Source of the DNA: an uncultured Candidatus Saccharibacteria bacterium
GTDB taxonomy: Bacteria > Patescibacteriota > Minisyncoccia > Phycocordibacterales > CSBR16-119
DNA: 64,000 nt
Direction of reading: 5' to 3'
Assembly (NCBI GenBank): GCA_964426385.1
Contig: CAYRQF010000004.1
Span: forward strand, 12,573-76,572
In this document: piece after piece, positions 1 to 59,358 of the stretch
Position numbering within the stretch: the first letter of the stretch is position 1
How the letters are laid out: every line of letters begins with the position of its first letter
Notes under the pieces: model-generated
What the model saw: only the letters and a program-made list of their open reading frames with translations
Told to the model about the DNA's origin: nothing
Database searches by the model: none
Made by a program: the position numbers and the translations under genes

Positions 1-154
1 CTCGACTATGTGTCGAGAGAGACGAAGCTGGAGCTGAAGAGGGGGAACGTACTAGTGAATCTCTCTCTCAGTGCAGATAAAGTTCCGATTCTCCCGCGAG
101 ATGACTCGTACAAATACGCCGTGGCGATAGGTCTCGCACTTGGCTAAATTATTG

Positions 155-226
155 TCCTCCCGGCAGGAATCGAACCTACATCAAGACCTTAGAAGAGTCC
201 TGTTCTATCCATTGAACTACGGGAGG
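155..226 (-). tRNA. tRNA-Arg (anticodon TCT)
   Basis: The reverse complement folds as a 72-nt cloverleaf. Acceptor CCTCCCG/CGGGAGG; D-stem GTTC/GAAC; anticodon stem GGACT/GGTCT with two G-U pairs; loop CTTCTAA (U33, anticodon UCU, A37); T-arm GTAGG-TTCGATT-CCTGC; discriminator A. CCA is not encoded. Confidence 0.8.
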
Positions 227-315: not shown

Positions 316-388
316 GCGCTCTTAGCTCAGTTGGTAGAGCAGTCCGTTTACACCGGAAAGGTCGGGGGTTCAAGTCCCTCAGGGCGCA
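316..388 (+). tRNA. tRNA-Val (anticodon TAC)
   Basis: 73-nt cloverleaf. Acceptor GCGCTCT/AGGGCGC; D-arm GCTC-AGTTGGTA-GAGC; anticodon stem GTCCG/CGGAA; loop TTTACAC (anticodon UAC); T-arm GGGGG-TTCAAGT-CCCTC; discriminator A. It is divergent from tRNA-Arg. Confidence 0.85.
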
Positions 389-431
389 CAAAATGTTTAA
401 TTTTACAGGGTTACCAAAAGGCGGGTCTTCT

Positions 432-1364
432 ATGGAGAGAAGTCCAAAGCAACTCTCCGAAGCAGTATTGTCGAATCTGGAACGAGTCGTATCAGAAGAG
501 ATGGAGCCTATAGATCCTGAGGACGTTGCTGAATCACTTGGAATTTCTTCTGAGGAGGTTGAATTAGATAAAAAATATGTTGAGGAAACAAAGGCCGGCA
601 TAGAGCACGGCAACGATTTGAATAAAGGAATCAAGGCTCTCAAGCTCGAATTGGATGGCATAGAGAGTAAGAGGATACTCGACTACAAAGAACGGCTAGG
701 TGAAGTGTTCGAGGGGTTTCTGTACAAGCACATTGGTGAAAGTCGAATATTTAAGAATGTCATTCTCCACAAAACTGCTGAGTATGACGACCTCCGAAAC
801 GGCGTTGATTTCGTAGCGGAATATGAAAATCCAAATAAGCCTAGTTCTTACATCGGACTTGCCATGGATGCATCTTTTTCGAGCTTTGAGCCGATTGTCG
901 CAAAAAAGATACAACGAAGTTTGGGAGATATCCAGAACAATACTCTCTCTGAAGTAAAGTATTTTCAATTCGATGCAGATTCAGAAGAGGGTAACCTCGG
1001 TATCCCGAGAGTTATCGTCGGCACAGATGAAAAACATGTAAAAGCCTTACTAGAAAAGTGGGACCTCAACGAAAAGGCAGAAGAAAAAGTTGTAAGTTTC
1101 GAGGAAAATCCCGTTTGGACTATTATGGCGCTACAGATAGTCGATCAACTAAAGATGTTTATTGGGGAGTCTGAGGCTCACGGACAAGAGAAGATCTCAA
1201 ATATATGCAGGATCTATTTGGCAGGATTGGAAAAATCCCTTAGAGACAACAAAGATCTTGTTAGTAATCATGAGTGGTTAGCAGATCAGGATAAGACACA
1301 TGTTTTGATAAAGAAGTTTTGCGATGACAGAATAAAAGAATTAGAAATGGAAAAGGCTGCTTAA
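432..1364 (+). CDS. hypothetical acidic protein
   Basis: Long ORF in frame with 393..1364. Start moved to the internal ATG at 432 because the first ATG lies only 5 nt after the tRNA-Val 3' end. I recognise no conserved motifs. Confidence 0.55.
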   Translation: MERSPKQLSEAVLSNLERVVSEEMEPIDPEDVAESLGISSEEVELDKKYVEETKAGIEHGNDLNKGIKALKLELDGIESKRILDYKERLGEVFEGFLYKHIGESRIFKNVILHKTAEYDDLRNGVDFVAEYENPNKPSSYIGLAMDASFSSFEPIVAKKIQRSLGDIQNNTLSEVKYFQFDADSEEGNLGIPRVIVGTDEKHVKALLEKWDLNEKAEEKVVSFEENPVWTIMALQIVDQLKMFIGESEAHGQEKISNICRIYLAGLEKSLRDNKDLVSNHEWLADQDKTHVLIKKFCDDRIKELEMEKAA

Positions 1365-5091: not shown

Positions 5092-5697
5092 ATGAGTAAA
5101 ATCATTAAACACAAGGAACAGCGAGTCGGTGTATTCATCGACGCGCAGAACCTATATCACACGGCCAAGAATCTCTTCGGCCACAAAGTCAACTTCGGCA
5201 AAATAGTCGAAGATGCAGTAGCAGGTAGAAAACTCGTTCGAGCCATTTCCTATGTCATCACATCTGAATCTGGCGAAGAACAAGGGTTCTTCGACGCACT
5301 GAACAAAGCGGGCATCGAGACGAAAGCCAAGGACCTCCAGATATTTGCCGGTGGTGCCAAGAAAGCTGACTGGGATGTCGGACTCGCCGTCGACGCTATC
5401 ACTATGGCGCCGAAACTCGACGCCGTCATTCTGCTCTCCGGAGATGGAGACTTCATCCCGATGGTCCAGTATCTCCAGATCCACTCGGGTATCCAGGTAG
5501 AAGTCGCATCATTTGGTAAATCTTCTTCGCAGAAGCTTATCGAAGAATGTGATGACTTCATGGATCTCTCTGAGAATCCAGAGAAATATCTTATCGGATT
5601 CCGTAGCCGCCGTGTCCCACGTGGGGGCCGAGGCCGACCGGGAACCGACAAGCCGGCAACGTCCAATGTGACGATAAGTCCAGCGGTACCTAAGTAG
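5092..5697 (+). CDS. NYN-domain (LabA-like, PIN-like nuclease fold) protein with RGG-rich C-terminal tail
   Basis: VGVFIDAQNLYH...DWDVGLAVDAITMAPKLDAVILLSGDGDFIPMV matches the NYN/LabA (DUF88) signature. The C-terminus is RRVPRGGRGRPG. Confidence 0.7.
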   Translation: MSKIIKHKEQRVGVFIDAQNLYHTAKNLFGHKVNFGKIVEDAVAGRKLVRAISYVITSESGEEQGFFDALNKAGIETKAKDLQIFAGGAKKADWDVGLAVDAITMAPKLDAVILLSGDGDFIPMVQYLQIHSGIQVEVASFGKSSSQKLIEECDDFMDLSENPEKYLIGFRSRRVPRGGRGRPGTDKPATSNVTISPAVPK

Positions 5698-5730
5698 GAT
5701 TTAGGATTTAAGAAGTAAGATTTAAAAGCA

Positions 5731-5758
5731 AAAAGCCCAATTCGGGCTTTTTGCTTTT
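5731..5758 (+). terminator. Rho-independent terminator
   Basis: aaaaagcccaattcgggctttttgctttt. Confidence 0.7.
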
Positions 5759-5761
5759 GGT

Positions 5762-5789
5762 TTGACAGTCACTGAAATAAATATAATAT
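5762..5789 (+). promoter_or_regulatory. sigma70-like promoter upstream of the tRNA-Gly locus
   Basis: TTGACA at 5762 and TATAAT/TAATAT at 5782-5789, with a 14-16 nt spacer, about 12 nt before the tRNA 5' end. Confidence 0.45.
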
Positions 5790-5801
5790 ATTGTTCGAAA
5801 C

Positions 5802-5953
5802 GGCCCTTTAGCTCAGCCCGGGAGGTGACTTGATAGTCAAGGATCGTTGTTTGTGTACTAGTTAAGCAAACAGCATGAATTGCCAGTATTTTCACCAGAC
5901 AGAGCGCTCGACTGCCAGTTGAGAGGTCCCTAGTTCAAATCTGGGAAGGGCTA
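5802..5953 (+). tRNA. tRNA-Gly (anticodon GCC) interrupted by a ~80-nt insertion in the D-loop (possible intron or pseudogene)
   Basis: The acceptor GGCCCTT (5802-5808) pairs with AAGGGCT (5946-5952). The D-stem halves GCTC (5811-5814) and GAGC (5902-5905) are separated by 87 nt. The anticodon arm CTCGA-CTGCCAG-TTGAG (5907-5923; U33, GCC, A37) is intact, as is the T-arm CCTAG-TTCAAAT-CTGGG. The insert is closed by ggtga/tcacc. Confidence 0.6.
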
Positions 5954-5957
5954 CAAT

Positions 5958-5992
5958 GAAGTCCGCCATGAATGTGGCGGGCTTCCTTTTTT
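5958..5992 (+). terminator. Rho-independent terminator after tRNA-Gly
   Basis: aagtccgccatgaatgtggcgggcttcctttttt. Confidence 0.7.
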
Positions 5993-6104
5993 AGGAGAAA
6001 TCTCTATACTTTAGATATTAAAAGATTAACTAGTTTGCGTTTAGGCAGGTAGGATTGAAGCCATTGGTTTCAGTACTAAAGCCTAGACGGAAACTCATAA
6101 TTAG

Positions 6105-8219
6105 ATGAAAGAAAAGAAATTTAGTTTAGAGCTTGGGGGACAGAATATTGTCGCCACTTTTTCGGATTTTGCCGATCAGTCGAACGCTGTGTTCATGTCC
6201 TGCAACGACACGATCGTTCTAGTTACAGCAGTCATGTCCAAAGAAAAGAGCGATATGCCGTACTTCAACCTCACAGTCGACTATCTCGAGAAGTTCTATG
6301 CTTCGGGCAAGATTGGCGGAGGCAGGTTCATGAAGCGTGAAGGCAAGCCGACAGACGAGGCTATACTTGCTGGGCGTGTTATCGACCGCACCATCCGTCC
6401 ACTCTTCGATCAGACTATGGAATACGGCGTTCAGATCATTGCTACAGTCCTGTCTATGGATGACTCGATTGATCCAGGCATACTCGCCGTGAATGGTGCG
6501 TCTCTCATACTCTCAGTTTCCGAGATCCCATGGGCTGGCCCTGTCGGTGCAGTTAGACTCGGAGAGTTTGAGGGTAAAGTGCTCCTGAACTCATCTCAGA
6601 AAACTCGCCAAGCTGGTTTTGATTACGACCTCATCGTCTGTGGTAAGGATGGGCGGGTGAACATGGTTGAAGCTATCGCTTACCAGATCCCCGAGGACGT
6701 CATCGCTGCCGGACTAGCCAAGGCATCGACTGAGATAACGAAGCTTGAGAACTGGCAGAAGGAGATAGGCAAAGAGCTCGGCAAGACCAAGCGTGTCATC
6801 GAGAAAGAAAATGTTTCAGCTGAAGTTCTGGCAATATTTAATGACAAGATTGCCGGAGTGCTCAAAGACTACGTTATGACCGGCACTCCAGGTAAAGAAA
6901 AGATGGAGGAGATCAAGTCTGTTTGGAAAAAAGCTCTGAAGGACGCAATGCCTGATGCCAAATCTCTGAAGAAAGAGATGGAATACTTCGAAGAAGAGAT
7001 CAACAAGATTATTCACGATGAGGCTGTGCAGAATGACAAGCGTGCGGATGGTCGCAGGATGGATGAGGTGCGAGAACTCTTCGCCAAGGCTGGTGGATTC
7101 TCGTCACGTCTCCACGGAACAGGTATTTTCTATCGCGGAGGTACACACATCCTGACAGCGCTTACGCTCGGTGGTCCAGAAGACATGCAGCTCGTTGATG
7201 GCATGGAGGTAGAAGAGGACAAGCGCTTCATGCATCACTATAACTTCCCACCGTACTCCGTCGGAGAAACTGGTCGGGCTGGATTCGTGAACCGCCGCGA
7301 GGTCGGCCACGGTGCACTCGCTGAGAAGGCTCTCGAAGTCGTGCTCCCGAACAAAGAAGATTTCCCCTATACTATCCGTCTCGTGTCAGAAGCTCTAGCC
7401 TCGAATGGTTCGACATCTCAGGCGTCCATCTGCGCCTCTACTCTCGCTCTCATGGACGGCGGTGTGCCGATCAAGGCGCCAGTCGCCGGCATCGCTATGG
7501 GACTCATGTACAAGGATGAACAGAACTACAAAGTCCTGACTGACATCCAGGGCCCTGAGGATCACCACGGTGACATGGACTTCAAGGCGGCCGGTACTGA
7601 GAAGGGTGTCACAGCCATCCAGCTCGATGTGAAGGTGGAGGGTGTCAGTCTAAAAATTCTCGGTGAAGCACTCGAGCAGTCTAAAAAGGCTCGTATGCAG
7701 ATACTCGAGGTTATCAAGGCGGCTATTCCAGAACCACGCAAAGAGATTAGTCCATTCGCACCGAAGATTGTCGTGACGAAAATCGCTCCATCAAAGATCG
7801 GCCTCGTTATCGGTGGAGGTGGCAAGACAATCAACGAGATTCGCGAGAAGACTGGTACCGAGATCACTATCGAGGACGACGGAACAGTCTACATCACCGG
7901 ACTTGCTGATGGACCAGAGCGTGCCAAGAAGATAATCGAAGACATGGTCTTCGAGTGGCCGATAGGTTCTGTTACTAGTGGGGAAGTTGTCGGTATCAAG
8001 GAATTCGGTGCGTTCGTCAAAATGATGAATGGGCAGGAAGGTATGGCACACATCTCTGAACTTGCAGACTTCCGTGTAGAGAAAGTAGAGGATTACCTCA
8101 AGCTAGGCCAGATAATCCCAGTCAAAGTTGTAAAGATAGAGAACGGCAAGATTGGGCTCTCAATCAAGCAAGCACAGAAAGACTTCCTGACAAAAAAGAG
8201 CTCCGAAAAACCTGTTTAG
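6105..8219 (+). CDS. pnp: polynucleotide phosphorylase (PNPase)
   Basis: Two RNase PH-like domains, the RLHGTGIFYRGGTHILTALTLGG motif, a KH domain (GLVIGGGGKTINEIREKTG) and an S1 domain at the C-terminus. It follows rpsO, as in the canonical operon. Confidence 0.95.
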   Translation: MKEKKFSLELGGQNIVATFSDFADQSNAVFMSCNDTIVLVTAVMSKEKSDMPYFNLTVDYLEKFYASGKIGGGRFMKREGKPTDEAILAGRVIDRTIRPLFDQTMEYGVQIIATVLSMDDSIDPGILAVNGASLILSVSEIPWAGPVGAVRLGEFEGKVLLNSSQKTRQAGFDYDLIVCGKDGRVNMVEAIAYQIPEDVIAAGLAKASTEITKLENWQKEIGKELGKTKRVIEKENVSAEVLAIFNDKIAGVLKDYVMTGTPGKEKMEEIKSVWKKALKDAMPDAKSLKKEMEYFEEEINKIIHDEAVQNDKRADGRRMDEVRELFAKAGGFSSRLHGTGIFYRGGTHILTALTLGGPEDMQLVDGMEVEEDKRFMHHYNFPPYSVGETGRAGFVNRREVGHGALAEKALEVVLPNKEDFPYTIRLVSEALASNGSTSQASICASTLALMDGGVPIKAPVAGIAMGLMYKDEQNYKVLTDIQGPEDHHGDMDFKAAGTEKGVTAIQLDVKVEGVSLKILGEALEQSKKARMQILEVIKAAIPEPRKEISPFAPKIVVTKIAPSKIGLVIGGGGKTINEIREKTGTEITIEDDGTVYITGLADGPERAKKIIEDMVFEWPIGSVTSGEVVGIKEFGAFVKMMNGQEGMAHISELADFRVEKVEDYLKLGQIIPVKVVKIENGKIGLSIKQAQKDFLTKKSSEKPV

Positions 8220-8298: not shown

Positions 8299-8397
8299 GC
8301 TAAGTCATTTCTAAACAGGTTTTTACTTCGTAGAGAGTCGCCACTTTCCCCCTAGAAGCTAGTCACTAGTCACTAGAACCCTGATATAATTATCACC

Positions 8398-9336
8398 ATG
8401 GCTGACGAACCAACTGATATAAGTAAGGCTTTGGAAAAAGCTGATGAGAGCATTACAACCAAGAATGCTTTGGCGACTAAGCACGCCAAGCAGACAGGTG
8501 AGGTTCGTACGTACGCGACCGATATCGGCGAGATGATGAAGAAGGAAAAAGGCTCCGTTATCAAGATAGCTCTGGCTGAGCAGAAACGTCGCGACGAGTA
8601 CAAGAAAAAGACTGACCCGACCGCAACTCGTAATATTGTCGTTGTTATGCTCGGATTCATCCTCATCGTCGGTGGCATAATGATATTCATTTACACTGTG
8701 ATGAATAGGGCGAGACCTGTAGAGGTGACGAGCTTCGTAACCACACTTCCAAGCTTCATATTTACCGAGAACCAGGTTCAGATCGATGTGACAGAACTCA
8801 ACCGCACAGAGCTCATCGCTGCTATCCGGGCACAGGTGAACAACACCACCCTCGGCGCCGAGACCATTAACAATTTGTTTGTTTCATATCGTGGGGTGAA
8901 CGGACAGGCTCAGATCCCATCGACCTTATTCCTACAGAAACTCGGCGTGGAGATCCCTGATACGTTGGCGCTGAATCTGTATCCAGAATTTTCCCTGGGC
9001 GTATATAGTCTGCCTAGAGGCAATGACCTGTTTATGATATTGCGGGTCAAGGATTTTAATGAGGCGTTCAGTGCAATGCGTGAATGGGAGTCATACATGC
9101 TGACAGAGATGGTCAGGCTATACAGTATCGATACGAAAGATTATGGCAAGGAGATATTTACCAAGGATTTCGAGAACGAGACTATATATAACAAGGAGGC
9201 TAGGATACTCAAGGACGAAGACGGCAAAGCCATACTTTCATACATATTCCTCGATACTCGTACCGTTATGATAACCACTCAGACTGACTCAGTGGGAGAG
9301 GTGATAAAAAGGTTGAATCTACAGACTATTAAGTAG
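8398..9336 (+). CDS. hypothetical single-pass membrane protein
   Basis: Charged N-terminus, then the TM helix IVVVMLGFILIVGGIMIFIYTVM, then an extracytoplasmic domain. TATAAT lies 11 nt upstream of the ATG. Confidence 0.6.
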   Translation: MADEPTDISKALEKADESITTKNALATKHAKQTGEVRTYATDIGEMMKKEKGSVIKIALAEQKRRDEYKKKTDPTATRNIVVVMLGFILIVGGIMIFIYTVMNRARPVEVTSFVTTLPSFIFTENQVQIDVTELNRTELIAAIRAQVNNTTLGAETINNLFVSYRGVNGQAQIPSTLFLQKLGVEIPDTLALNLYPEFSLGVYSLPRGNDLFMILRVKDFNEAFSAMREWESYMLTEMVRLYSIDTKDYGKEIFTKDFENETIYNKEARILKDEDGKAILSYIFLDTRTVMITTQTDSVGEVIKRLNLQTIK

Positions 9337-9366: not shown

Positions 9367-9729
9367 ATGAACGAGACTATTAAATCTCACAAAGAATTGA
9401 TCGTTTGGTAAAAAGCCTTTGAGCTGACTAAAATGATCTATAGGTTGAGTGAGAAATTACCATCAAAGGAAAACTTTAGTCTACAGAATCAAATTAGAAG
9501 AGCTGCCGTGTCCATACCGTCAAACATTGCCGAAGGTCGAAATAGAAAAACTGCGAAGGATTTCCTGCAATTCCTTCGTTTCGCCTTTGGTTCCGTCGCT
9601 GAAGTAGACACTCAGTTGCTTCTGATGAAAGATCTGTATGGAATTAGTTCAAAAGAATGTGATGAATTACTAATAGAGGTAAGCAAGATGCTCAGGTCAA
9701 TGATCGTTAAGCTAGAAGCAAAAAGCTAG
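9367..9729 (+). pseudogene. four-helix-bundle protein (TIGR02436 / Avd-like / 23S-rRNA-IVS-protein family) interrupted by an in-frame TAA at the conserved Gln codon
   Basis: The translation MNETIKSHKELIVW*KAFELTKMIYRLSEKLP...QIRRAAVSIPSNIAEG...FLQFLRFAFGSVAEVDTQL matches the family motif LIVWQKA...RRAAVSIPSNIAEG throughout. The stop at 9419-9421 replaces CAA. The ORF-track call 9433..9729 is the remnant downstream of the stop. Confidence 0.7.
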
Positions 9730-13517: not shown

Positions 13518-16500
13518 ATGTCGTCTCGTGAAATACCACCAAATTCGGGGCCTAACCCTAGTGAGGGTTCTTCTGACTCCCCGGAGAAAAGCGAGTCGCG
13601 CCAACGAGAAGAAAACGAAAAGGCTACAATCGAATCCATTGTGGCAAAGAAAATGTCTGGCCAACCTCTTTCTGCTTCCGAAGAAGCTCAATACGGAACA
13701 AAGGATATTGCAAAAAAGGTAGACAAAGAAATCGTCCGGTTGTCAAAAGAAGCGATAAAGAGCACTAAACCTGATTTACCACCCGGTAGACAGAGAACAG
13801 GTAAACTAAAAGCAAATGGTGGTCTGGATTCCTTGGCGGCAGTTTCTCAGCGTATGAAAGACAAGCAGGAGCTTGAAAGAATACACGCAGAAGCACCAGA
13901 AGAGATAATAGAGGCCTTGCAAGATAGAGGGCTAAGTACGACTGGTACACCCGATCAATTAATAGAGCGCCTGCTTAACGCTGGGATAGATCTTGCAGAT
14001 TCTCCAGAAGAACATAAACCAGTTACTGTTCAGGTAGAGGCAAAGAAAGCCCCTGATATCAGAGCGCTAAATGCAGAGAGAAGGAAAAAAGAGGCGGAAT
14101 TGCGAAGTATCGGGCTATCAGTTAATCCTGTGGTGTCAGCAGAAGCAGCTGTCGAAGCTTCTACTTCCAGCGAAGCTGACAAGAATGAAAAAGTTGCTGA
14201 GATTGTCGGGAGTATCAAGGCCACTTTAGAAAAAGAATCAGTTCCTACTACCGAGCGACCTTCGGAGGTAAAGAAAGATTCTAAGCAGGAAAATATTATT
14301 CCTATAGAAGACCTCGCTCGGATGGAAAAGTTTGTTTTGCGCAGGAGAGCAGGTGCACCCATCGAAGAAGACGAAGTAAGACTATTTAATAAATACGAAA
14401 AGGAGATCAATACTCTCTTGTCTAAGCCAGAAGTAAAAAAGGAAGAATCAAAGAAGTCGGAACCTGAATCAAAGCCGCTAGTTCAAGAAAAAGTTACAGA
14501 CGAGCAGATCGGCGACGTTGCTCGAGCGATAGGTGTCGCTGGTGTTAAGGTTGAAAACCTTCCTGAGAATCAGAAGAGAATATATCAGGCCTATAAGGAT
14601 CGCATCGATGCCTTGGTTGTACGCATTAGTCCTCCGGATAAGGAGGCGGTAAAGAGTCTAGGAGGTGCTCAGAAGATAAACTTTTTCCGCGAGCAGACCA
14701 AAGCCGGAATTCTCCCGAAGAACGAGGAAAATGAAGACTTCTTGTATAAAAATTTTAATGAGATAGTAAATGATGATGAGACTAAGCTTGCTTACTTTGC
14801 AGCTGACTTCGTGGAAAATGGCGACAACCCTGAGCGTACCACTGAGAATCAAGTATTTATTAACCAGAATATTGACGCAATAAACGCCAAGATAAAAGAC
14901 TTCGGCGGAACGACGTTTTTCACTAAACAAGAAGCAGCTCCAGCACCCGTTGTTGCGCCAGAAGAAGCACCGAAGCCGCAGCAGCCAGAGAAGAAGAGTG
15001 TTTCGTTGGCAGAGCAGATCAAGGATTATGTATATAGATACACACACTGGGAGGACATGTCCTCACCAGAGGATAGGCAGTTTCATGCCGATAATGGTCC
15101 GGCGATCAACGAGGCGATTGCTGTATTTGCCAAGCAGGTAGAGGACCTAGCGAAGGATATGTTCATCAACGAGATGACTGAACAGCAGTTGTCTGCTGAA
15201 AAACTTAAATTTTATAAAGAGAATGAGCAGAATGTAGACATCGCGATCAGTAGGCTTGCCAAAGGCGAGAGGAATTTCGAGAAAAATGTCGCGGAGGTGC
15301 ATGCAAATGTAGTAGAAGATAAGAAAAGAATCGCGGGACTTATCAAGGATCCAGAAGTTCAAGAATTGATCACAAAGATGAATCTCGATATGCAGTACGT
15401 TTACAGCCTGTCGCCGGAGTTTTTCGACCTAGACTCGAACAAGCAAATCTATATCCTAGACAAGATCCGCCAGAAGATAAGCCTCGACGCTACATTTGAA
15501 GCAGAAGACCGAGTCAAGAAACAGCTCGGCCGAAAAGCGAAGTCACCACTCGATTGGTTTAATAAGAGAATTGAGCTACTCACCAAAGAATTCCAAGAGA
15601 CCAAGGCTCGTAGGGAGGTTATCGACGAGGCCAAGAATAGCGGCCTAGGAGATTATGCGGGAGATATAGAAGCGATGACTAAGCATGTCGCCAAATTAGA
15701 CATGAATATCAGCTACAGCGCTGAGGGTAAGCCGATACTTGAATATGTAAATCCAAAATCTTTCGAATGGGATCCGGAGTATATAAAAAGGTTCAAAAAA
15801 AGCGAGAGCCCTGTCGAGTATGTAAATAGATTCAATGAGGCTGCGACCGCAGTTTCGGAGATGCCCCACGAATGGAGCCAGCCAAATGCGAACATCATTG
15901 ACAAGATGAAGTACAAGAAAGCTTGGGCCAAGTATGAAGTACAGCGCGACATCCTGTTTGGTGCTGTCGTCGAACAGAAGAAAAAAGAAATTCCTGACAA
16001 CGAAGAAGAGGCCTCGAAGTCTGCGATGGAATGGATGACTATGATGAATAGCAAAGTCAGGATGAATCAGCTCCTGACAGAGTATCCTGAGATCGAGCAG
16101 TTCGAGAATAAAGGCCCTTCTTTTAATCCAGAGGATCTAAACTCCAAAGAATTCCAGTGGACAGGAAAGAAAGCATTGTTTGCCGCAGGATGGTTTACCA
16201 AGGATCTGGTTCGTGATAACTGGGCAGAAGTCTCTGCGGCTATTTTTGCCGGAGGACTCGGCGGGTTACTTGGCCTGCGCAAGAAATGGGTGGAATACGA
16301 TGATGCCGAAAAGAGAAAGAGATATGGCCAAGCTGTAGGGGGTAAGAATATAGAAAAGGGTATAAAAAAGTTTATAAATGCTGGCGAGACAGCGGATAGA
16401 CTTCAGTGGTTTTTAGACAAGATCGAGTCTCCAGAGCCTGGAGAAAATATAGAAAAGTTTGCCGAGCGACTCAAGAACCACCTAGCGATAATAGACGAGC

Positions 16501-19040
16501 GAATCTCTTCCGGAAGAGTAAACTACGGCGACAAAAAAGAATCCCTCATAAATAAGATAAAGATTATCGAGAAGATGGCCGAAGCTCAGACGAAACTTTT
16601 CACTATGGGGCAGTTCAATGAGGTCGTCGAGAGCCAGAGTATGTTCAACAAGTTTAGCGTAACTATGAATAAGTGGCTTCCTGAGGCGGTAACGAACTTC
16701 TTCGATAAGCATGGTGATAATTCTAAATCAAACGACAGACTCGCCGATAGGTTCGATCGATCCCAGAAAGATAGCCAAGCCATGAAGGCAAAAGCCGCGC
16801 AGCTAACGCTCGCATTTGGCAAAGGTGCCGCGCTGGCGGCGACGGCATTCGGCGCTGGTTGGTTGGTGAGAGAGGGGTGGGACCTCATCGGTTCTGGTCC
16901 CGCTATACCAGGCAGAACAAATGATTTGATAGACGGTAGTGAGGGGGGCGGAAACGAGGTTCCTCGAACACCTACTCCTGGCGTGCCTGGTAGGCCGGCA
17001 GTTCCAGAGGGATATATTCCTGAGGCAGATAGGGAAACAGTTCCATCAGTACTCGATACAGTGCCTAAACCGCCGAGTTCGTCTGTGCTCGACAATGTAC
17101 CTAAACCACCAGAGCCTGGCGCAACTGTCGTAATAGAGGAAACTCCAGAGCCGAAAGCCCCCGAAGCAACAGACTCAACTCCAAAATCTCCGGAGACTAA
17201 GTCTCGGATGAAAGAAGTTCTCGGAACTCGAGATGACGGTCATTTGGATCTAGCGGAGATGAAGAAGAATTTCCAGATATCCAAAGACGCTTCAGGTGGG
17301 TTCGACATCGACATAAAGAACATTAACGATTTCGACAAGGTCAAAGCTTATATCAAGAATCCGATAAAGTTCGTAGATTTTTCACAGACTGACTTACCGG
17401 CAAATCTAGAGAAACCTCAGTGGGGTATCCAAGCCATGATCAGCGCCAAAGGTGAGATCAAGGAATTCTTGGCGACACAGCAGTATCTAGAAGAACTAGA
17501 GAAAGCCGATCCTAAATCTGGAGATATACCAGCACTCAAAGAGCACATGAAAGTCATGGGCGGGGAGATCAGAGCCAAGATGGCAGAATTCTACAGGAAG
17601 AATGCTGGGAAGGTTATAGAAGGAAAACTATTCAAGCCTTTCGAAGACTGGGTAGGGCCGACATCGGCTATTCCTAGCAGTATGGATGATGCGACCGCAA
17701 GTCTCGATGGTGGAGGCGGGTTCATCCCGCCAGAACCAGAGCAGGAATACACTGTCTATGATCCGAGCGAAACACCAAAGGTGCCTAGTCCTGAACCCGT
17801 CTCAACAGATACATCCGCTGGTCAAGAAGTCGTGACGTCACCACCCGCGCAGACCTATGAAGTCTGGACTCCTCCCGCGCCTGTCACAGAAGCGCCTACA
17901 CCTGTCGAAGCTCCGACTGAGTATAAAGTTTACGATTCAGGATTGGCACCTGAGTCAGTGGCGCCGACACCCGAACCTCAGCCTGAACCTGCGACAGAGT
18001 ATACGGTTTACAATCCAGGCATGGCGCCGGAAACTTCACCCGCCACTCCAACGCCAGAACCAGAACAGAAATACACCGTCTATGACCCTTCTGAAAAGAT
18101 AGCACCAGAGGTTACTAAAACAGCTAGTGGAGAGTACTCCCTCGAGAAAACTCCTACGAGTCGTGTCATAGAGGTAGACAATGAATACATGAAAGGCAAG
18201 ATAACTCTTGTTGAGGACAAGAGCGGAGTAGTAAAAGAAATATACGATGTAACTACTAAAGATCTTGATCCGGACAAATATTTCGTTGAAAATTGGAAGG
18301 ACGGCTTAACTGCAAAAGAAATCGAAGACAAAGAGATATTCTTGAGAGCGTATCTTAATAACCAAGATATGATAGTCGGCCAAGTTGTGGAGGAAGGAGA
18401 TAAGTTCTATAACGCTGTGGATGCCAGAGTCGATCTTTCGTTTGAAAAGATCAAAGACGTGCTGAAGACTGAACACATGATTGCTGAAGAGGCAGACACT
18501 CCAGAGGTTGCTTCGGGTAATGTTTCGGAGGCGACCATCTCGAAAGAGGAAATGGACGTTGCCAAAGAATCCGGCGTCGAAGTCGAAGAAGCACCTCGGC
18601 CTATCGAGAGTACTCAACATGGTGAGTTAAAAGGCGAATACGTCTCAGAACTTCAGACTTCTCCGACTGAGAGAGTTATCAGCTTTAACAATCCTGACGG
18701 TGAAGTCCGTGGACAGATTCAAATAGTGTATGACGAGAAAACTGGAGAGGTTGAGGGTGTTAAATACAGTAAAGACACGGGAAGCCTCTTCTCTGTTAGG
18801 CAGGAGGTTGTTTGGGCAGAGCATATGGAGGATAATTGGCGTAATAATCTCGGTACCAGGTCATCAATGGGGGTAGAGATCGAGGCTAAAAGATACATAA
18901 GATACAAGGGTATACTGCAGTCCTGTGGTTTCAAACCAGGTACTCCAGAGTATAAATACTTTAACGGGGAGTTAGAGGCTATCATCAAAAAGTCTGGCAA
19001 ATTCATCAAAGAAGAAACCATTTTCCCTTCAAAGGGCTAA
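13518..19040 (+). CDS. giant (1840 aa) hypothetical protein with SAP-like motif, Lys/Glu-rich coiled regions, a Gly/Ala hydrophobic segment and tandem Pro-rich 'EYTVYDP' repeats
   Basis: Uninterrupted 5.5-kb ORF. SAP-like IIEALQDRGLSTTGTPDQLIERLLNAGI near the N-terminus. Five repeats of the form (E/Q)(Y)(T/K)VYD(P/S)...PxPEP at aa ~1420-1560. No N-terminal signal peptide. Confidence 0.7.
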   Translation: MSSREIPPNSGPNPSEGSSDSPEKSESRQREENEKATIESIVAKKMSGQPLSASEEAQYGTKDIAKKVDKEIVRLSKEAIKSTKPDLPPGRQRTGKLKANGGLDSLAAVSQRMKDKQELERIHAEAPEEIIEALQDRGLSTTGTPDQLIERLLNAGIDLADSPEEHKPVTVQVEAKKAPDIRALNAERRKKEAELRSIGLSVNPVVSAEAAVEASTSSEADKNEKVAEIVGSIKATLEKESVPTTERPSEVKKDSKQENIIPIEDLARMEKFVLRRRAGAPIEEDEVRLFNKYEKEINTLLSKPEVKKEESKKSEPESKPLVQEKVTDEQIGDVARAIGVAGVKVENLPENQKRIYQAYKDRIDALVVRISPPDKEAVKSLGGAQKINFFREQTKAGILPKNEENEDFLYKNFNEIVNDDETKLAYFAADFVENGDNPERTTENQVFINQNIDAINAKIKDFGGTTFFTKQEAAPAPVVAPEEAPKPQQPEKKSVSLAEQIKDYVYRYTHWEDMSSPEDRQFHADNGPAINEAIAVFAKQVEDLAKDMFINEMTEQQLSAEKLKFYKENEQNVDIAISRLAKGERNFEKNVAEVHANVVEDKKRIAGLIKDPEVQELITKMNLDMQYVYSLSPEFFDLDSNKQIYILDKIRQKISLDATFEAEDRVKKQLGRKAKSPLDWFNKRIELLTKEFQETKARREVIDEAKNSGLGDYAGDIEAMTKHVAKLDMNISYSAEGKPILEYVNPKSFEWDPEYIKRFKKSESPVEYVNRFNEAATAVSEMPHEWSQPNANIIDKMKYKKAWAKYEVQRDILFGAVVEQKKKEIPDNEEEASKSAMEWMTMMNSKVRMNQLLTEYPEIEQFENKGPSFNPEDLNSKEFQWTGKKALFAAGWFTKDLVRDNWAEVSAAIFAGGLGGLLGLRKKWVEYDDAEKRKRYGQAVGGKNIEKGIKKFINAGETADRLQWFLDKIESPEPGENIEKFAERLKNHLAIIDERISSGRVNYGDKKESLINKIKIIEKMAEAQTKLFTMGQFNEVVESQSMFNKFSVTMNKWLPEAVTNFFDKHGDNSKSNDRLADRFDRSQKDSQAMKAKAAQLTLAFGKGAALAATAFGAGWLVREGWDLIGSGPAIPGRTNDLIDGSEGGGNEVPRTPTPGVPGRPAVPEGYIPEADRETVPSVLDTVPKPPSSSVLDNVPKPPEPGATVVIEETPEPKAPEATDSTPKSPETKSRMKEVLGTRDDGHLDLAEMKKNFQISKDASGGFDIDIKNINDFDKVKAYIKNPIKFVDFSQTDLPANLEKPQWGIQAMISAKGEIKEFLATQQYLEELEKADPKSGDIPALKEHMKVMGGEIRAKMAEFYRKNAGKVIEGKLFKPFEDWVGPTSAIPSSMDDATASLDGGGGFIPPEPEQEYTVYDPSETPKVPSPEPVSTDTSAGQEVVTSPPAQTYEVWTPPAPVTEAPTPVEAPTEYKVYDSGLAPESVAPTPEPQPEPATEYTVYNPGMAPETSPATPTPEPEQKYTVYDPSEKIAPEVTKTASGEYSLEKTPTSRVIEVDNEYMKGKITLVEDKSGVVKEIYDVTTKDLDPDKYFVENWKDGLTAKEIEDKEIFLRAYLNNQDMIVGQVVEEGDKFYNAVDARVDLSFEKIKDVLKTEHMIAEEADTPEVASGNVSEATISKEEMDVAKESGVEVEEAPRPIESTQHGELKGEYVSELQTSPTERVISFNNPDGEVRGQIQIVYDEKTGEVEGVKYSKDTGSLFSVRQEVVWAEHMEDNWRNNLGTRSSMGVEIEAKRYIRYKGILQSCGFKPGTPEYKYFNGELEAIIKKSGKFIKEETIFPSKG

Positions 19041-22261: not shown

Positions 22262-23167
22262 ATGATTTCAAAATACCTCCCAAGTAAGAAATTCGTCAAA
22301 GTCATGGGCGTGGTAATAATTACCGGCGTCGTGATTTTGGCGGTAGCTATGCTCGTCAGTCGTCGGCAAACTTTTGAGAATAAAAACGATGAGTCTCTAT
22401 TTCTCGTTGAGGGTGCAATAGAGAATTTTTATAACACAGATACGGATAAGGACGGAGTCTATGATTGGGAAGAGGGTCTGTGGGGAACGGATCCATTCAA
22501 TAAAGACACTGACAGTGACGGGGTGACAGACGGAGAAGAGATCGGTTCTAACAAAGAAGAGATACGCGAGAAGAATAATCTCGGGGGGGAGGTCACCGCC
22601 TCTGAGGACTTGAATCAGACTGAGATATTTGCTCGGCAACTATTCTCAGCAGCATCACTTGCCGGACAGCAAGGCGGCCTTTCTCAGGAGTCTATGGAGG
22701 CGTTCTCTAAATCTTTTGGTGGTGCCATTTCCGACTCCAAGATAAAAGATCCTTTCACATTGTCTGATCTAAAGCTTACAGCCGTGAGTCCTGTCGACTA
22801 CAAGACCAGCCTCGGTGAAGCTTTTGACCCATACTTGCAAGCCGGGATTAATCCACTCAACGTTATATATAGATTCTCTAATGGCGACACTGCAGTTTCT
22901 GGAGATATAGATCAGCTTTCGGAGATTTATAACGGTATCTCGAATTCTTTGCTTGCGATTCCAACACCGCATAACGCCGCTGGCATCCAGTTGTCTTTGA
23001 TAAACACAACAGCAAAACTCTCTTTGGCATTTATAAACATGAAACACATAGAAGATGATCCGATACTCGCCGTCGTTGGTTTCTATCAGTATCAGGAATA
23101 CTCAGTAGAGCTCGAGAATACCCTCGAAAAATTGAAGAGTTATTTTAACTCAAGTGGTATAATCTAA
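22262..23167 (+). CDS. membrane-anchored hypothetical protein with Asp-rich Ca-binding-like repeats
   Basis: N-terminal TM segment. DTDKDGVYDWEE...DTDSDGVTDGEE resembles thrombospondin-type-3/dockerin-like DxDxDG motifs. Confidence 0.55.
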   Translation: MISKYLPSKKFVKVMGVVIITGVVILAVAMLVSRRQTFENKNDESLFLVEGAIENFYNTDTDKDGVYDWEEGLWGTDPFNKDTDSDGVTDGEEIGSNKEEIREKNNLGGEVTASEDLNQTEIFARQLFSAASLAGQQGGLSQESMEAFSKSFGGAISDSKIKDPFTLSDLKLTAVSPVDYKTSLGEAFDPYLQAGINPLNVIYRFSNGDTAVSGDIDQLSEIYNGISNSLLAIPTPHNAAGIQLSLINTTAKLSLAFINMKHIEDDPILAVVGFYQYQEYSVELENTLEKLKSYFNSSGII

Positions 23168-23176
23168 TCGTATTTT

Positions 23177-25465
23177 ATGAAATTCGCAATTAAGCTACTC
23201 AAGAAAACATTCTGCCTCGTCCTGATTGCATCACTGTTCAGTCAGACTGCGCTAGTTTTTTCTCCTGAGTATGTGGAGGCTCAAGGGGTGGGCGGGGGCG
23301 CCTCAGGACAGGTTAGCACAGGCTTCGGAGCCTCGGGCATAATAGGTACCGCTCTAAACTGTTCAGGTGTGATGGATAAGCTGGCCGGCGCACTCAGCGG
23401 CCTGTTCAAAGTTACTGTAAAAGAAGTGCCTGTAGGGGATAATACAAACAACACTAAAGAGGGTTGCCTTGACAGTATCGCTCACGAAATCGTCGTCCGT
23501 ATCATGGATAAGATAACTCTAGCTACTGTTGATTGGATCAATAATGGTTTCGAGGGTCAGCCACTTTTCCTAGAAGACCCTCAGAAATTCTTTGAAAACG
23601 TGGCCGCTCGCGAGATTAACTCTCTGACCGGTTGGTTTACAGCTAGCCCAGAGGGCTACCCGTTCGGGCAGATTGTTATGACAACAATACTTACGAATCT
23701 ACAATCACAGTTCTCCCAGAACGTTCAGTTCTCACTGAACGAAGTATTGGCACATGGAACATATGAAGATTTCAGATTCAATTTCAATGTCGGCGGATGG
23801 GCCGGCTATTCAGCTTTTTATAAACCAAATAACAACCCTTTTGGTAACTATTTACTTGTTAACCGAGAACTCGGTAGGAAGATCGGAGGGACGACTATTA
23901 CTGTCGGTGACAACTATAGTAAACAGATTCAGCAGTCTGGAGGATTCTTGAATCAGAGAAAGTGTGTAGTGTCAGGAACAGGTAACAACGACTATATCCC
24001 AGAAGACGATGAGTCAGGGTACCATATACCATCAGGTGGCATGCCTACGATCGCCCTCTGGGAGTTCTTGATTGGCGCCGATCAGGGTACACCGGCATTT
24101 CAGAGCGTTTACGACCAACTCCAGCCGGGATTCACTGGACCACTCACCGCACAGGCCACAGACGTTCAGGCTCAGATAGAAAACTATGAACTACGCAGTA
24201 CATGTCGCGAGTGGAAAACTATTACGCCAGGCAAGGTGGTTTCAGATCAGCTGACATCCGCACTCAACATACCTACGAATCAGTTGATACAGGCCGACGA
24301 GGTCAGTGAGAACCTCGCGCTCATTTTCGACGCGTTACTACTTCAGTTGGTAAACACAGGACTACGATCCCTCGACGGGGATGATCCTTCTACGAACGTT
24401 GCGTTGGCACAGGTCCAGGGCTTACAGCCAGGGCAGGTTTCAAACGGTCAGACCCCTCCTCCATCGGTTGATACAATAACTGGAACAGGATATTCACAAG
24501 AGCCATTAGTTCTGGTGCAACAGTCCTATATTCAGCAGGCTCAGCAAGCTATGCCAGTTCTGGATAATTTAATACGTAAGATTAAAGCTTTGGATTATTG
24601 TGTACCCGGACCGCACCCTTCTTGGGTTGATGAGGCTCAGCAAAACTTAGAGAATTCATTACTCAGTGTCGGGGCTTTTGCCTCCAGTAACCCAGACCCT
24701 CAGGACGCCGAAGATGAGAATCAAGATTACTACGCTAGCGTTATCCAGAGTCTAACCGGTATAACAATAGAACAAAGCCCGGCGATGCATAACCATACTC
24801 AGTTTATGGATTTTATGAACAACCTTTACGCAAAATATTCCGAAAAGATGCTAAATCCTAGTGACGCTGGATATAATCGATTCTTGACCCCGCCTTCTAC
24901 CAGAATATTCCTGGAAAATCTATTGAATGAGATGCAGGTTTACCAAGCCTCGTATGATGATCTAAATGAATATCTTAATAACATTACCTCATATTTACCA
25001 ACACTTATATCTATAGAGGCAACTATAAATAACATCGCACAGACTAACGGTGGAATAGTTGATCCGACCAACCCACAGGTTCAGGCGCAGATATCATTGT
25101 TTGAGAGTATCAATAGTCATTTCGCCACGGAAGCACAGCTCAGTGATTTGCAGACAAATTACGTATTGTTCCAGAACAGGGAGACCACAGTAAACAGTCA
25201 TTTGGATAGCTGTATAACCGAAACGGTGGTTGGGCCATACAATAATCCGAATAATAGGGTGGCTTATCCAGCTGCGATATTCCCATATGTACACAGTGTC
25301 TCATTGGTACCACTTCCGGGCCCGAACGACAGCTTCTTCGATGGAATTCAATTTGCTGGCAATACAAACAACGGCAACATAGATGTTACTTTTGGTGGGG
25401 TCAATATCAATGCAGGTGCGACACTTGACACATTCGAAGACCAGGTTCTCCAGTCCATCTACTAG
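23177..25465 (+). CDS. large secreted hypothetical protein (762 aa, Gln/Asn-rich)
   Basis: Signal peptide MKFAIKLLKKTFCLVLIASLFSQTALVFSPEYVEA. No recognisable catalytic motifs. Confidence 0.6.
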   Translation: MKFAIKLLKKTFCLVLIASLFSQTALVFSPEYVEAQGVGGGASGQVSTGFGASGIIGTALNCSGVMDKLAGALSGLFKVTVKEVPVGDNTNNTKEGCLDSIAHEIVVRIMDKITLATVDWINNGFEGQPLFLEDPQKFFENVAAREINSLTGWFTASPEGYPFGQIVMTTILTNLQSQFSQNVQFSLNEVLAHGTYEDFRFNFNVGGWAGYSAFYKPNNNPFGNYLLVNRELGRKIGGTTITVGDNYSKQIQQSGGFLNQRKCVVSGTGNNDYIPEDDESGYHIPSGGMPTIALWEFLIGADQGTPAFQSVYDQLQPGFTGPLTAQATDVQAQIENYELRSTCREWKTITPGKVVSDQLTSALNIPTNQLIQADEVSENLALIFDALLLQLVNTGLRSLDGDDPSTNVALAQVQGLQPGQVSNGQTPPPSVDTITGTGYSQEPLVLVQQSYIQQAQQAMPVLDNLIRKIKALDYCVPGPHPSWVDEAQQNLENSLLSVGAFASSNPDPQDAEDENQDYYASVIQSLTGITIEQSPAMHNHTQFMDFMNNLYAKYSEKMLNPSDAGYNRFLTPPSTRIFLENLLNEMQVYQASYDDLNEYLNNITSYLPTLISIEATINNIAQTNGGIVDPTNPQVQAQISLFESINSHFATEAQLSDLQTNYVLFQNRETTVNSHLDSCITETVVGPYNNPNNRVAYPAAIFPYVHSVSLVPLPGPNDSFFDGIQFAGNTNNGNIDVTFGGVNINAGATLDTFEDQVLQSIY

Positions 25466-25543
25466 CGTGGTATTTACACACATATTTTACCTAGAACCAC
25501 TTGGCCAGGTGGTATAATCTGGTCATTGCACTAGGCAGTTTAT

Positions 25544-27709: not shown

Positions 27710-27717
27710 GTAAATCT

Positions 27718-28353
27718 ATGGATCTAGAATTCAAGAAAAAAATAGAAGAGCGCATGAAACAGCTTCCCTCTGTCCTGGCCAAGGCCATCAAGGCTTCGAA
27801 CTGGGAGAGTATCGTTTTCGATATTGGTCGCAGACACTCGCTTCATGTCGACGACATCGGCGACCTACAGAACGAACTTATCCTCGTCCTAACTGGCATC
27901 GTTCATCCTGACGAATTCCGTCATATTGTCATCAGTGAGATCGGTATCCCCGAAGACAAAGCCGACGTTATCATCGAAGAGATCAACGACCAAGTAAACG
28001 AGAAGATAAAAAACGAACTGAAGTCCATTATGGACGACGCAGACGAAGACAAAACTGTCGATACCGAGAGCGGGGAACTTGCTGGGTCTGAGAAGGAAGT
28101 CCTTAGAGATAGTGGTATCCGCCTCGGAGATGACGTCGATGAGACGGCGAATCAGCACACTCCTCCGGTAGCAGACGGTGTAGAAGCGCCGACTGTCGCA
28201 GTGCAGGCTCCGAAACCAGAACCAAAGCCTGTGAATCCAGTAACTGCGAAAATTATCGCCGAGCCTCAGGTGTTCAAGACTCGCATCTCTCCGGCAGAAG
28301 TCGGTGAGGCCGGCAGGGGATTCAGTGATCCTTACCGCGAGCCAGTAGAATAA
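27718..28353 (+). CDS. hypothetical acidic protein
   Basis: ORF in an operon-like arrangement, separated by an 8-nt gap from the VirB6-like gene. Confidence 0.5.
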   Translation: MDLEFKKKIEERMKQLPSVLAKAIKASNWESIVFDIGRRHSLHVDDIGDLQNELILVLTGIVHPDEFRHIVISEIGIPEDKADVIIEEINDQVNEKIKNELKSIMDDADEDKTVDTESGELAGSEKEVLRDSGIRLGDDVDETANQHTPPVADGVEAPTVAVQAPKPEPKPVNPVTAKIIAEPQVFKTRISPAEVGEAGRGFSDPYREPVE

Positions 28354-28447
28354 TTAGCTGATGGCTTATAGCTGTTAGCTTATAGAGAAATAATAAATTC
28401 CTAAAAGCTAAACGCTATCCGCTATAAGCTCGTGTTATAATACATTC
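28354..28447 (+). promoter_or_regulatory. Conserved promoter/operator module (copy A): GCTTATAGC palindromes followed by the extended -10 TGTTATAAT
   Basis: atggcttatagctgttagcttatagag...cctaaaagc...cgctataagctcgtgttataata is shared with 31695-31790. Related half-copies lie at 9337-9366 and 9730-9761. Confidence 0.55.
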
Positions 28448-28867: not shown

Positions 28868-28975
28868 TCCCAAAACTGATTTTACTACCACAAAATGATA
28901 ATTTTAAATCACAACACAAAATTGGTCGGATCAGAATTTATTAGCATGATCAAAAATCAGTAACGGGACAAGTAT

Positions 28976-29626: not shown

Positions 29627-29627
29627 T

Positions 29628-31694: not shown

Positions 31695-31790
31695 CAGAGC
31701 TTACAGCGTATGGCTGTTAGCTTATAGAAATTCCACAAAATACCTAAAAGCAATAAGCTATACGCTAAAAGCTCGTGTTATAATATTTCC
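31695..31790 (+). promoter_or_regulatory. Conserved promoter/operator module (copy B)
   Basis: atggctgttagcttatagaa...cctaaaagcaataagctatacgctaaaagctcgtgttataata is homologous to 28354-28447. Confidence 0.55.
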
Positions 31791-32384: not shown

Positions 32385-32388
32385 AATC

Positions 32389-33375: not shown

Positions 33376-33377
33376 CA

Positions 33378-34958: not shown

Positions 34959-34962
34959 TCTC

Positions 34963-59326: not shown

Positions 59327-59358
59327 TAAAGCTGTGTTCAACTCAACCAACCAAAAAC

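Follow-up and report, generated by a model that had tools for sequence, protein, structure and literature searches.

What is a gene that would fold as a complete transfer RNA (tRNA) cloverleaf with 78 additional nucleotides (nt) set into its D-loop? The question is raised by positions 5802-5953 of a 64,000-nt stretch of DNA (contig CAYRQF010000004.1, positions 12,573 to 76,572) from an uncultured bacterium of the Patescibacteriota. The whole stretch is called the window here, and coordinates refer to it unless another locus, designated by an L number, is named. A sequence-only reading had taken the locus for a tRNA-Gly(GCC) gene whose insertion resembled an intron or else a recent disruption. 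We conclude that the locus, which with its predicted transcription signals spans 5762-5995, is a real, independently transcribed and strain-variable tRNA-like gene, and that its insert belongs to no known intron class. The conclusion rests on the anatomy of the gene, its transcription signals, its strain-variable distribution, a near-identical copy in a divergent lineage, and a series of intron tests that the insert failed. As to what the RNA is for, we tentatively favor an accessory tRNA-like RNA that keeps its insert, with an acceptor/T-arm end still likely to be processed, spread by recombination, and distinct from an ordinary decoding tRNA-Gly.

The RNA and its three segments are as follows.

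5802-5953, plus strand: tRNA-like RNA of 152 nt, forming a complete cloverleaf, its anticodon GCC and its D-loop 87 nt long
5802-5823, plus strand: 5' segment (tRNA positions 1-21), with the acceptor 5' strand, U8, A9, D-stem strand GCTC and D-loop AGCCCGGGA containing A14, G15, G18 and G19; identical in a second lineage (L222)
5824-5901, plus strand: 78-nt insertion at the 3' edge of the D-loop, as judged by deletion scan, folds and composition
5902-5953, plus strand: 3' segment (tRNA positions 22-73), with the D-stem 3' strand, anticodon arm, variable loop, T-arm, acceptor 3' strand and discriminator A

All 21 of the 21 cloverleaf stem pairs are present. The acceptor stem GGCCCTT/AAGGGCT (5802-5808/5946-5952) forms 7/7 pairs, the first of them G1·U72; the D-stem, GCTC at 5811-5814 with GAGC at 5902-5905, forms 4/4, its strands standing 87 nt apart. 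The anticodon arm (5907-5923, CTCGA-CTGCCAG-TTGAG) and the T-arm (5929-5945, CCTAG-TTCAAAT-CTGGG) each form 5/5 pairs, flanking the variable loop AGGTC at 5924-5928. Within the anticodon loop CUGCCAG, which places GCC at 5914-5916, C32 and G38 are able to pair in folds of the RNA, narrowing the loop. Conserved bases are all in place: U8, A14, G15:C48, G18, G19, A21, U33, A37, G53, T54, T55, C56, A58 and C61. The tRNA body includes the stretch GGCCCTTTAGCTCAGCCCGGGAGAGCGCTCGACTGCCAG..., the discriminator is A5953, and CCA is not encoded. These coordinates and parts agree with the sequence-only reading, which had recognized a tRNA-shaped gene with a D-loop insertion of about 80 nt as its sole architectural defect, and had rightly called that position atypical for bacteria.

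Neither ARAGORN with default settings nor Rfam at gathering scores calls the locus; in the window, both return just two ordinary tRNAs, which lie at its start. A permissive Rfam scan gives the tRNA model (RF00005) 21.7 bits against a threshold of 29, aligning the 3' two-thirds alone. By the features that define RF00005, the locus has the helices and the tertiary-contact bases but falls short of the family threshold, a tRNA-finder call and a D-loop of normal size. When 74-86 nt are deleted in silico from the D-loop, ARAGORN calls tRNA-Gly(GCC) in 112 of 195 tested deletions. Excising exactly 5824-5901 (78 nt) leaves a textbook D-arm, GCTC-AGCCCGGGA-GAGC, and it is this result that places the insert at the D-loop 3' edge, directly after G18-G19-G20-A21, with boundaries uncertain by about 2 nt owing to G/A repeats. 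The part of the D-loop after G18-G19 is the region of natural length variation in tRNA structure. The intron mode of ARAGORN, a check that the sequence-only reading had called for, places on this span a tRNA-Val(cac) interrupted by a 56-nt intron. We rejected this as a forced fold, with mismatches in the D and anticodon stems and the true anticodon arm treated as a long variable arm.

A strict cloverleaf detector that permits any D-loop length found 0 matches in 5.12 Mb of shuffled window sequence, and the tRNA-like arrangement is therefore not a product of chance. Among 744 matches of this detector, D-loops measure 7-11 nt, with lengths of 4, 5 and 12 nt seen once each; the exceptions are the window locus, one locus described below (L219), and artefacts in which two tandem tRNAs are read as one. 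Because genuine tandem pairs gave apparent D-loops of 86-88 nt, the locus might be thought the decayed middle of a tandem duplication, its outer halves derived from two adjacent copies and its insert from the eroded 3' part of the first copy, a spacer, and the 5' part of the second. The length would suit, 78 nt being a 74-nt tRNA plus a 4-nt spacer, and a global alignment of the insert to a permuted tRNA is borderline (p = 0.055). Local alignment, however, gives p = 0.84, and no recognizable tRNA element lies inside the insert. Neutral decay, moreover, would not wipe out the inner 78 nt yet spare every pair and the invariant bases of the outer halves. We consider such an origin very improbable. 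A generic pattern for D-loop-interrupted tRNAs, applied to viral contigs, produced more than 120 matches, all top candidates being adjacent tRNA gene pairs, and was abandoned.

The insert has a G+C content of 40%, versus 59% in the flanking tRNA segments. It had been described as structured, and the helices named in that description exist: ggtga (5824-5828) can pair with tcacc (5892-5896) over 5 bp, and cttga-tag-tcaag (5829-5841) forms a hairpin. The longest helix is a 9-bp hairpin, 5846-5854/5866-5874. The fold as a whole lends the description little weight, since the minimum free energy (MFE) z-score against shuffled sequence is -0.87 for the insert and -0.84 for the whole RNA, and since the closing ggtga/tcacc helix is lost, and the 9-bp hairpin kept, in the optimum with the cloverleaf enforced, which lies only 1.7 kcal/mol above the MFE. 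No second copy of the insert turned up in the window, nor any copy in 880 kb of related loci. An origin as a miniature inverted-repeat transposable element (MITE) or other small insertion element was considered and rejected: the insert is single-copy, its inverted ends extend just 5 bp, and any flanking repeat is at most 2 nt.

Is the gene a tRNA-Gly? Glycine identity involves G1-C72, C2-G71, U73 in bacteria, C35/C36, and the (G10-Y25):G45 triple (PMC9976931). The window RNA has the anticodon bases C35/C36 (GCC, 5914-5916) and the core triple (G5811-C5905 with G5925), but at the acceptor end it has G1·U72, G2-C71 and A73 instead of the glycine elements. The tRNA-Gly(GCC) genes of three other loci treated below (L216, L217, L219) all carry the canonical GCGGG(C/G)A...U73. 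When 1305 tRNAs called by ARAGORN were ranked by closeness to the in-silico spliced RNA, the top 40 comprised Ala, Ile, Val, Met and a few other kinds but no Gly, and the nearest body belongs to a phage tRNA-Val that also has a G1·U72 acceptor. Normal charging by GlyRS is doubtful, given the missing acceptor identity, the non-Gly body and the C32-G38 pairing. The label tRNA-Gly, then, holds for the anticodon and the core triple and fails for the acceptor end and for a body nearest to Val, Ala, Ile and Met, which leaves it doubtful.

The signals for transcription, and the genes between which the RNA lies, are these.

5092-5697, plus strand: NYN-domain (LabA/DUF88) ribonuclease-like gene (Pfam PF01936, E = 1e-34), the conserved left flank of a variable slot
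5727-5759, plus strand: terminator-like hairpin of the NYN gene, read from the sequence as AAAAAGCCC-aattc-GGGCTTTTT with a T-rich tail behind it
5762-5789, plus strand: cassette promoter of sigma-70 type, TTGACA, 16-nt spacer, TAATAT, ending 12 nt before tRNA position 1
5958-5995, plus strand: cassette intrinsic terminator from a terminator scan, with a 12-pair stem (5958-5985), 4-nt loop and T-run; identical in L222
5996-6104, plus strand: right flank of the slot, made up of the pnp promoter and a conserved 5' leader; leader kept in relatives without the cassette
6105-8219, plus strand: pnp, polynucleotide phosphorylase (PNPase; Pfam RNase_PH, KH, S1), used for finding relatives

The cassette at 5762-5995 thus comprises promoter, 152-nt RNA and terminator. 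Its promoter matches the consensus at 10 of 12 positions, is the only promoter-like site that a promoter scan found within 5600-6150, and is kept in L222 save for one spacer base. The hairpin of the NYN gene keeps its stem but has a different loop in L222, and a simple terminator scan does not list it. All three tRNA-type genes of the window, at 154-226 (minus strand), 316-389 (plus) and 5802-5953 (plus), lack an encoded CCA and continue from A73 into a CAA trailer, so that in this respect the tRNA-like gene matches the ordinary tRNA-Arg and tRNA-Val. The pnp leader drew attention in its own right: window 6040-6100 (…TTTAGGCAGGTAGGATTGAAG…CAGTACTAAAGCCTAGACGG…) is strongly conserved among relatives at 74-99% PNPase identity, including L087, L089, L091, L095 and L224, has the appearance of a regulatory hairpin, and could be an autoregulatory element, as for E. 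coli pnp.

By its PNPase relatives the window falls within the Patescibacteria, in the Paceibacteria/Nomurabacteria group, the best species representative being only 60% identical. In four other samples, contigs with identical flanking proteins bear the identical locus. The order integrase, S15, NYN, slot, pnp is kept in all close relatives, and the spacer that forms the slot is highly variable. Its extent in each is given by the following line.

NYN-pnp slot: window 5698-6104; L091 3465-4000; L092 2899-4000; L093 3387-4000; L224 3301-3971; L087 2501-2781; L089 3551-3723

The cassette is missing in no fewer than eight close relatives (L095, L087, L089, L091, L092, L093, L224 and L226). Two of them (L087 and L089, 90-91% PNPase identity) have only a terminator and the pnp leader in the spacer. 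Three others (L091, L092 and L093, 85-88%) have unrelated units of promoter, 250-470-nt RNA and terminator, and L224 has a gene for a 128-residue secreted protein. The RNAs of L091-L093 match no Rfam family at gathering scores or at E<=1 and show no tRNA-like acceptor/T-arm end, and the slot cargo RNAs of relatives have no copies elsewhere among the related loci. A slot that is otherwise empty or filled with unrelated promoter-cargo-terminator units suggests that intact expression cassettes are its usual content, and close relatives without any tRNA at the position make the tRNA-like gene an optional one. The sequence-only reading had looked to related genomes for an uninterrupted tRNA-Gly at the orthologous position as the sign of a decayed copy; such a gene was not found there, the close relatives having no tRNA in that place at all. 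In eighty more distant species representatives (PNPase identity of 60% or less), the region upstream of pnp had no tRNA-Gly, and BLAST matched neither of the tRNA halves nor the insert there, but these genomes stand too far away to inform. Positions 3555-3655 of L092 duplicate the 3' end of the NYN gene and its terminator region, a hint that incoming cassettes bring a copy of that flank with them.

Two comparisons bear on how the cassette may have moved. L095, which shares a sample with a cassette-bearing strain, encodes a PNPase 99% identical to that of the window and has no cassette; its identity to the window is 97% from 6005 onward and 84-87% upstream, a step that marks a recombination breakpoint at the right edge of the cassette (about 6005). 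L226, with an NYN protein 94% identical, lacks the cassette in the 120 nt visible. Conversely, L222/L223, whose NYN protein is 92% identical and whose flanking genes show 80-88% nucleotide identity, carries the cassette at 98-99% identity. The simplest reading is that the whole spacer moved recently by homologous recombination through the conserved flanks, which would also best explain the spread between lineages. Within the 152-nt RNA, L222 differs from the window by two substitutions. A5828G changes an A-U pair of the ggtga/tcacc helix to G·U, and T5931C converts U51·G63 of the T-stem to C-G. Over the two lineages, 40/40 proposed pairs are standard in every row, and 19/19 insert pairs are kept. 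Selection on the tRNA-like RNA is allowed by these data, although not proven.

The same data bear on a possible, if doubtful, alternative, namely that the gene is a recently disrupted, non-functional tRNA, accessory and perhaps derived from a phage or other element, which was inactivated by 78 nt of foreign DNA and now hitch-hikes in a recombination hot spot. Rejection by standard detectors, the lack of acceptor-end glycine elements on a body that is not Gly-like (PMC9976931), an anticodon loop shrunk by C32/G38 pairing, and an insert without structural signal would all be expected of such a remnant. The cassette is evidently dispensable, being absent even beside the 99% identical PNPase and the 94% identical NYN protein, and the 98-99% identity with L222 reaches into neutral-looking spacer, so no selection on the RNA need be invoked. 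On the other side, all cloverleaf pairs and tertiary-contact bases are intact in both lineages, both substitutions preserve pairing and one improves the T-stem, and promoter and terminator are whole. Nor is the insert a repeat or MITE in the window or related loci. What else occupies the slot has the look of intact expression units, and no uninterrupted allele appeared among viral (IMG/VR) or JGI metagenome contigs, which were searched with a pattern covering the 3' body alone.

Could the insert be removed from the transcript? To our knowledge, interrupted bacterial tRNA genes are almost exclusively cases of group I introns in the anticodon loop. Introns in tRNA and ribosomal RNA (rRNA) genes are unusually abundant in Patescibacteria (PMC13011429), where the tRNA group I introns belong to subgroup IA and occupy positions 33/34 to 36/37; one group II intron is known in a tRNA D-loop, elsewhere (PMC4033280; PMC13011429). 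The genes so interrupted resemble the window locus in belonging to the same phylum, in escaping ARAGORN and tRNAscan-type tools, and in yielding a tRNA when the interruption is removed in silico (PMC13011429; PMC4033280). They differ in that the introns span at least about 200 nt, possess a P1-P9 core and match RF00028, whereas the window insert is shorter even than the group I core of about 100 nt (PMC4033280), sits in the D-loop and has no RF00028 match. It is likewise too short for a group II intron, which has six domains and several hundred nt. A group I 5' exon in a tRNA ends in U, and the intron in G (PMC13011429); the 5' D-loop segment AGCCCGGGA offers no U for this purpose. Over 5700-6050, group I, group II and self-cleaving ribozyme families gave no Rfam match at E<=10, while the same library detected the group I intron of L219 at 95 bits.

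Protein-dependent excision fares no better. Introns with a bulge-helix-bulge (BHB), as found in archaea and eukaryotes and occurring also in the D-arm (PMC4033280), are like the window insert in measuring less than 100 nt, in lying outside the anticodon site and in interrupting an otherwise intact tRNA. They require, however, the BHB motif and an EndA/Sen endonuclease. A search of all junction combinations for two 3-nt bulges around a 4-bp helix gave 0 full candidates, versus 0.83 expected in shuffles, and the host is a bacterium whose promoters are of sigma-70 type and whose terminators are intrinsic. A Pfam scan of approximately 37 open reading frames (ORFs) of the window, which covers only 64 kb of the genome, found no gene for RtcB, EndA, Ro/TROVE, Fem-type proteins or GlyRS. 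The intron interpretation therefore meets an insert without a group I or group II match, too short, lacking a BHB, closed by only 5 bp and folding no better than shuffled sequence; no known excision route fits it.

Another reading is that the insert is a new kind of bacterial tRNA intervening sequence: self-catalysis or unknown proteins would remove it and rejoin its flanks, leaving a tRNA of 74 nt. In its favor, cuts of 74-86 nt restore a tRNA callable by ARAGORN, the insert ends can pair and A5828G keeps that pairing, the insert, like many introns, is richer in AT than the exons, and the phylum is rich in tRNA and rRNA introns. Yet the absence of any ribozyme match or BHB candidate, the missing RtcB and EndA in the window, and a closing helix of 5 bp that is not preferred under the enforced cloverleaf all speak against it, and the spliced product would still be without acceptor-end glycine identity. 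We judge it quite unlikely.

Excision without religation is another matter. The intervening sequences (IVSs) of bacterial 23S rRNA are excised by RNase III and have long duplexes as base stems, a substrate for this enzyme being roughly two helical turns. The window insert has in common with them that it is strain-variable RNA in a stable RNA gene and has a base helix, but the host RNA is tRNA-shaped rather than ribosomal. If the insert were removed in this manner, the result would be a two-piece tRNA whose 5' piece is still held by 11 bp of acceptor and D stem. Insertions are common in rRNA genes of the candidate phyla radiation (CPR), and one expanded-D-loop tRNA-like gene (L217, below) even lies inside a 23S insertion. 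The long base stem of an rRNA-type IVS is lacking, however, with 5 bp in the base helix and 9 bp in the longest hairpin, and fragmented tRNAs are without known precedent in bacteria, so that this route seems scarcely credible.

If no known pathway removes the insert, are there other tRNA genes with enlarged D-loops? We scanned metagenome contigs with a pattern representing the 3' body alone, GAGC-N6-CTGCCAG-N6-GGTC-N4-GTTCRAATC, which returned five loci. One, L216, is a normal tRNA-Gly(GCC), and another, L220, was set aside for its truncation at the contig end and its poor anticodon stem. L219, of a taxon not established, encodes at 119-207 (minus strand) a tRNA-Gly(GCC) whose 24-nt D-loop includes a hairpin capped by GAAA, TCTC-GAAA-GGGA; Rfam scores it as a tRNA at 58 bits and ARAGORN misses it. 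It lies between a tRNA-Val(TAC) and an upstream 23S rRNA gene that has a group I intron (1598-1905). L217/L218 carry a tRNA-Gly(GCC)-like gene, with a 36-nt D-loop containing a 7-bp hairpin, inside a Candidatus Paceibacterota 23S rRNA gene. In L217 this gene (987-1086, minus strand, within a large-subunit rRNA match at 1-2583) occupies an insertion of about 370 nt, located by eye at the helix-45 IVS site. The gene combines a canonical glycine acceptor with one T-stem mismatch, is preceded by a terminator-like hairpin and a GATAAT box, and may act as a processing signal that fragments the rRNA.

Artefacts aside, the tRNAs with D-loops above 12 nt in 880 kb of CPR sequence are those of L219, L217/L218 and the window locus, all with the anticodon GCC. 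They share the CUGCCAG anticodon loop, a D-loop enlarged by a hairpin, and failure to be called by ARAGORN, and L217 comes from the same phylum as the window. The other genes nonetheless have the canonical glycine acceptor (GCGGGGA...U73), far smaller expansions at other D-loop positions, and a place in or beside 23S rRNA genes, and the insert sequences show no mutual similarity. The differences in position and sequence indicate parallel events rather than one family. An unrecognized Patescibacteria class of D-loop intervening or expansion segments, ranging from hairpins of 15-30 nt (L219, L217) to the 78-nt three-helix domain, and either spliced by an unknown route or kept as an extra arm of a processed, charged tRNA, is unlikely; were they kept as extra arms, the tRNAs might be specialized non-ribosomal or toxin-resistant ones. 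What the smaller cases do suggest is that D-loop expansions are tolerated or recurrent in such genomes, and hairpins too short for introns in at least one other Paceibacterota genome favor retention of the window insert over splicing.

Known RNAs provide partial parallels for a retained insert. Transfer-messenger RNA (tmRNA) and YrlA combine an acceptor/T-arm tRNA mimic with a large non-tRNA domain that replaces the anticodon arm, and YrlA works with PNPase. The window RNA shares with them a tRNA-like module joined to a large extra domain, and its gene adjoins pnp; unlike them, it has an intact anticodon arm and its extra domain in the D-loop, with no Ro/TROVE gene among the window ORFs scanned. 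At the locus itself there was no ARAGORN tmRNA call and no Rfam match to tmRNA or YrlA. Staphylococci have non-proteinogenic tRNA-Gly isoacceptors for cell-wall synthesis, of normal length and with glycine acceptor identity kept. The likeness here is that of an extra species with a Gly anticodon and a deviant elbow, not meant for the ribosome. The difference is that nothing ties the window RNA to Fem-type transferases (for context on the staphylococcal isoacceptors, see PMC9177973 and PMC9976931). A literature search for expanded or extended D-loops returned papers on DNA recombination and mitochondrial D-loops only, and none on bacterial tRNA D-loop inserts. No catalogued category accommodates an intact cloverleaf whose D-loop contains a short insert that is not group I.

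We return to the accessory tRNA-like RNA that keeps its insert. Since no known excision pathway fits, the 78-nt, AT-rich, foreign segment most likely stays in the mature RNA, where it would form an extra domain projecting from the tRNA elbow. The body would be of Val/Ala/Ile type with a GCC anticodon, and its intact acceptor/T-arm half should still permit RNase P cleavage, 3' trimming and CCA addition. With a bulky elbow and a non-glycine acceptor end, normal charging by GlyRS and normal ribosomal decoding are unlikely; the RNA may instead serve as a tRNA-like non-coding RNA or a specialized non-ribosomal tRNA, and not as the tRNA-Gly(GCC) of the cell. Several considerations weigh against this proposal. 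Retention of the insert is deduced only from the missing recognizable excision signal, and the insert has no thermodynamic or family signal of a functional domain. The patchy distribution and the odd identity set (G1·U72, G2-C71, A73, C32-G38) fit a non-functional remnant equally well. Covariation between the two lineages amounts to 0 compensatory changes, with two one-sided changes only, 1 of them in the insert. The high-identity block, approximately 5700-6200, also spans spacer DNA of no obvious function and so indicates recent transfer without proving selection on the RNA. Finally, an 80-nt elbow domain would probably clash with the ribosome and with elbow-binding factors, and no concrete cellular role can be named.

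The remainder of the window is ordinary CPR chromosome, with a type IV secretion system (T4SS)-like cluster, ClpP, trigger factor, NusA, TIM, PGK, RecJ, EF-Tu and ribosomal proteins. At 9433-9729, 1.2 kb downstream of pnp, is a gene whose product the precomputed annotation of the identical contig L001 assigns to the "23S rRNA intervening sequence protein" family (PF05635); no link between it and the tRNA-like gene was found. At 13518-19040 and 22262-36588, an ORF of 1840 aa and several of 200-760 aa without Pfam match adjoin a TraG/VirB4-like ATPase and a T4SS-pilin-domain protein, a typical CPR surface/secretion cluster. The S10 ribosomal-protein operon is broken right after L2 (57300-58154) by two non-ribosomal ORFs (58250-60213) in the expected place of S19/L22, one of 358 aa, membrane-like and with no Pfam family, the other of 284 aa with a signal-peptide-like start. 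A palindromic repeat of about 100 nt, resembling repetitive extragenic palindromes or MITEs and having a 16-nt inverted repeat (CAAAATCTCCATTTCC...), recurs between genes in the window lineage (L087 2501-2640; L095 1549-1649; L092 9555-9653; L093 7220-7311), with a short match at window 58162-58185, just after the L2 gene. In L072 (minus strand; reverse-complement 8347-8566), the intact tRNA-Arg(TCG) gene has, about 150 nt upstream, a partial second copy of its 5' end, GCTCCTGTAGCTC; integration of an element into the tRNA gene leaves such a pattern.

If the RNA is expressed with its insert, the tRNA elbow can bear a whole extra domain, an architecture that would be new beside tmRNA and the Y-RNA-like RNAs; if instead the insert is excised, bacteria would possess a new route of RNA processing. 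ARAGORN misses 3/3 of the expanded-D-loop genes, and the Rfam tRNA model calls only the mildest, L219. Because finders miss expanded D-loops, and because surveys at the level of amino acids are blind to a hidden GCC isoacceptor, the tRNA repertoires of CPR bacteria may be under-called. The NYN-pnp slot, for its part, provides a clear case of a chromosomal hot spot that swaps small promoter-to-terminator cassettes between lineages.

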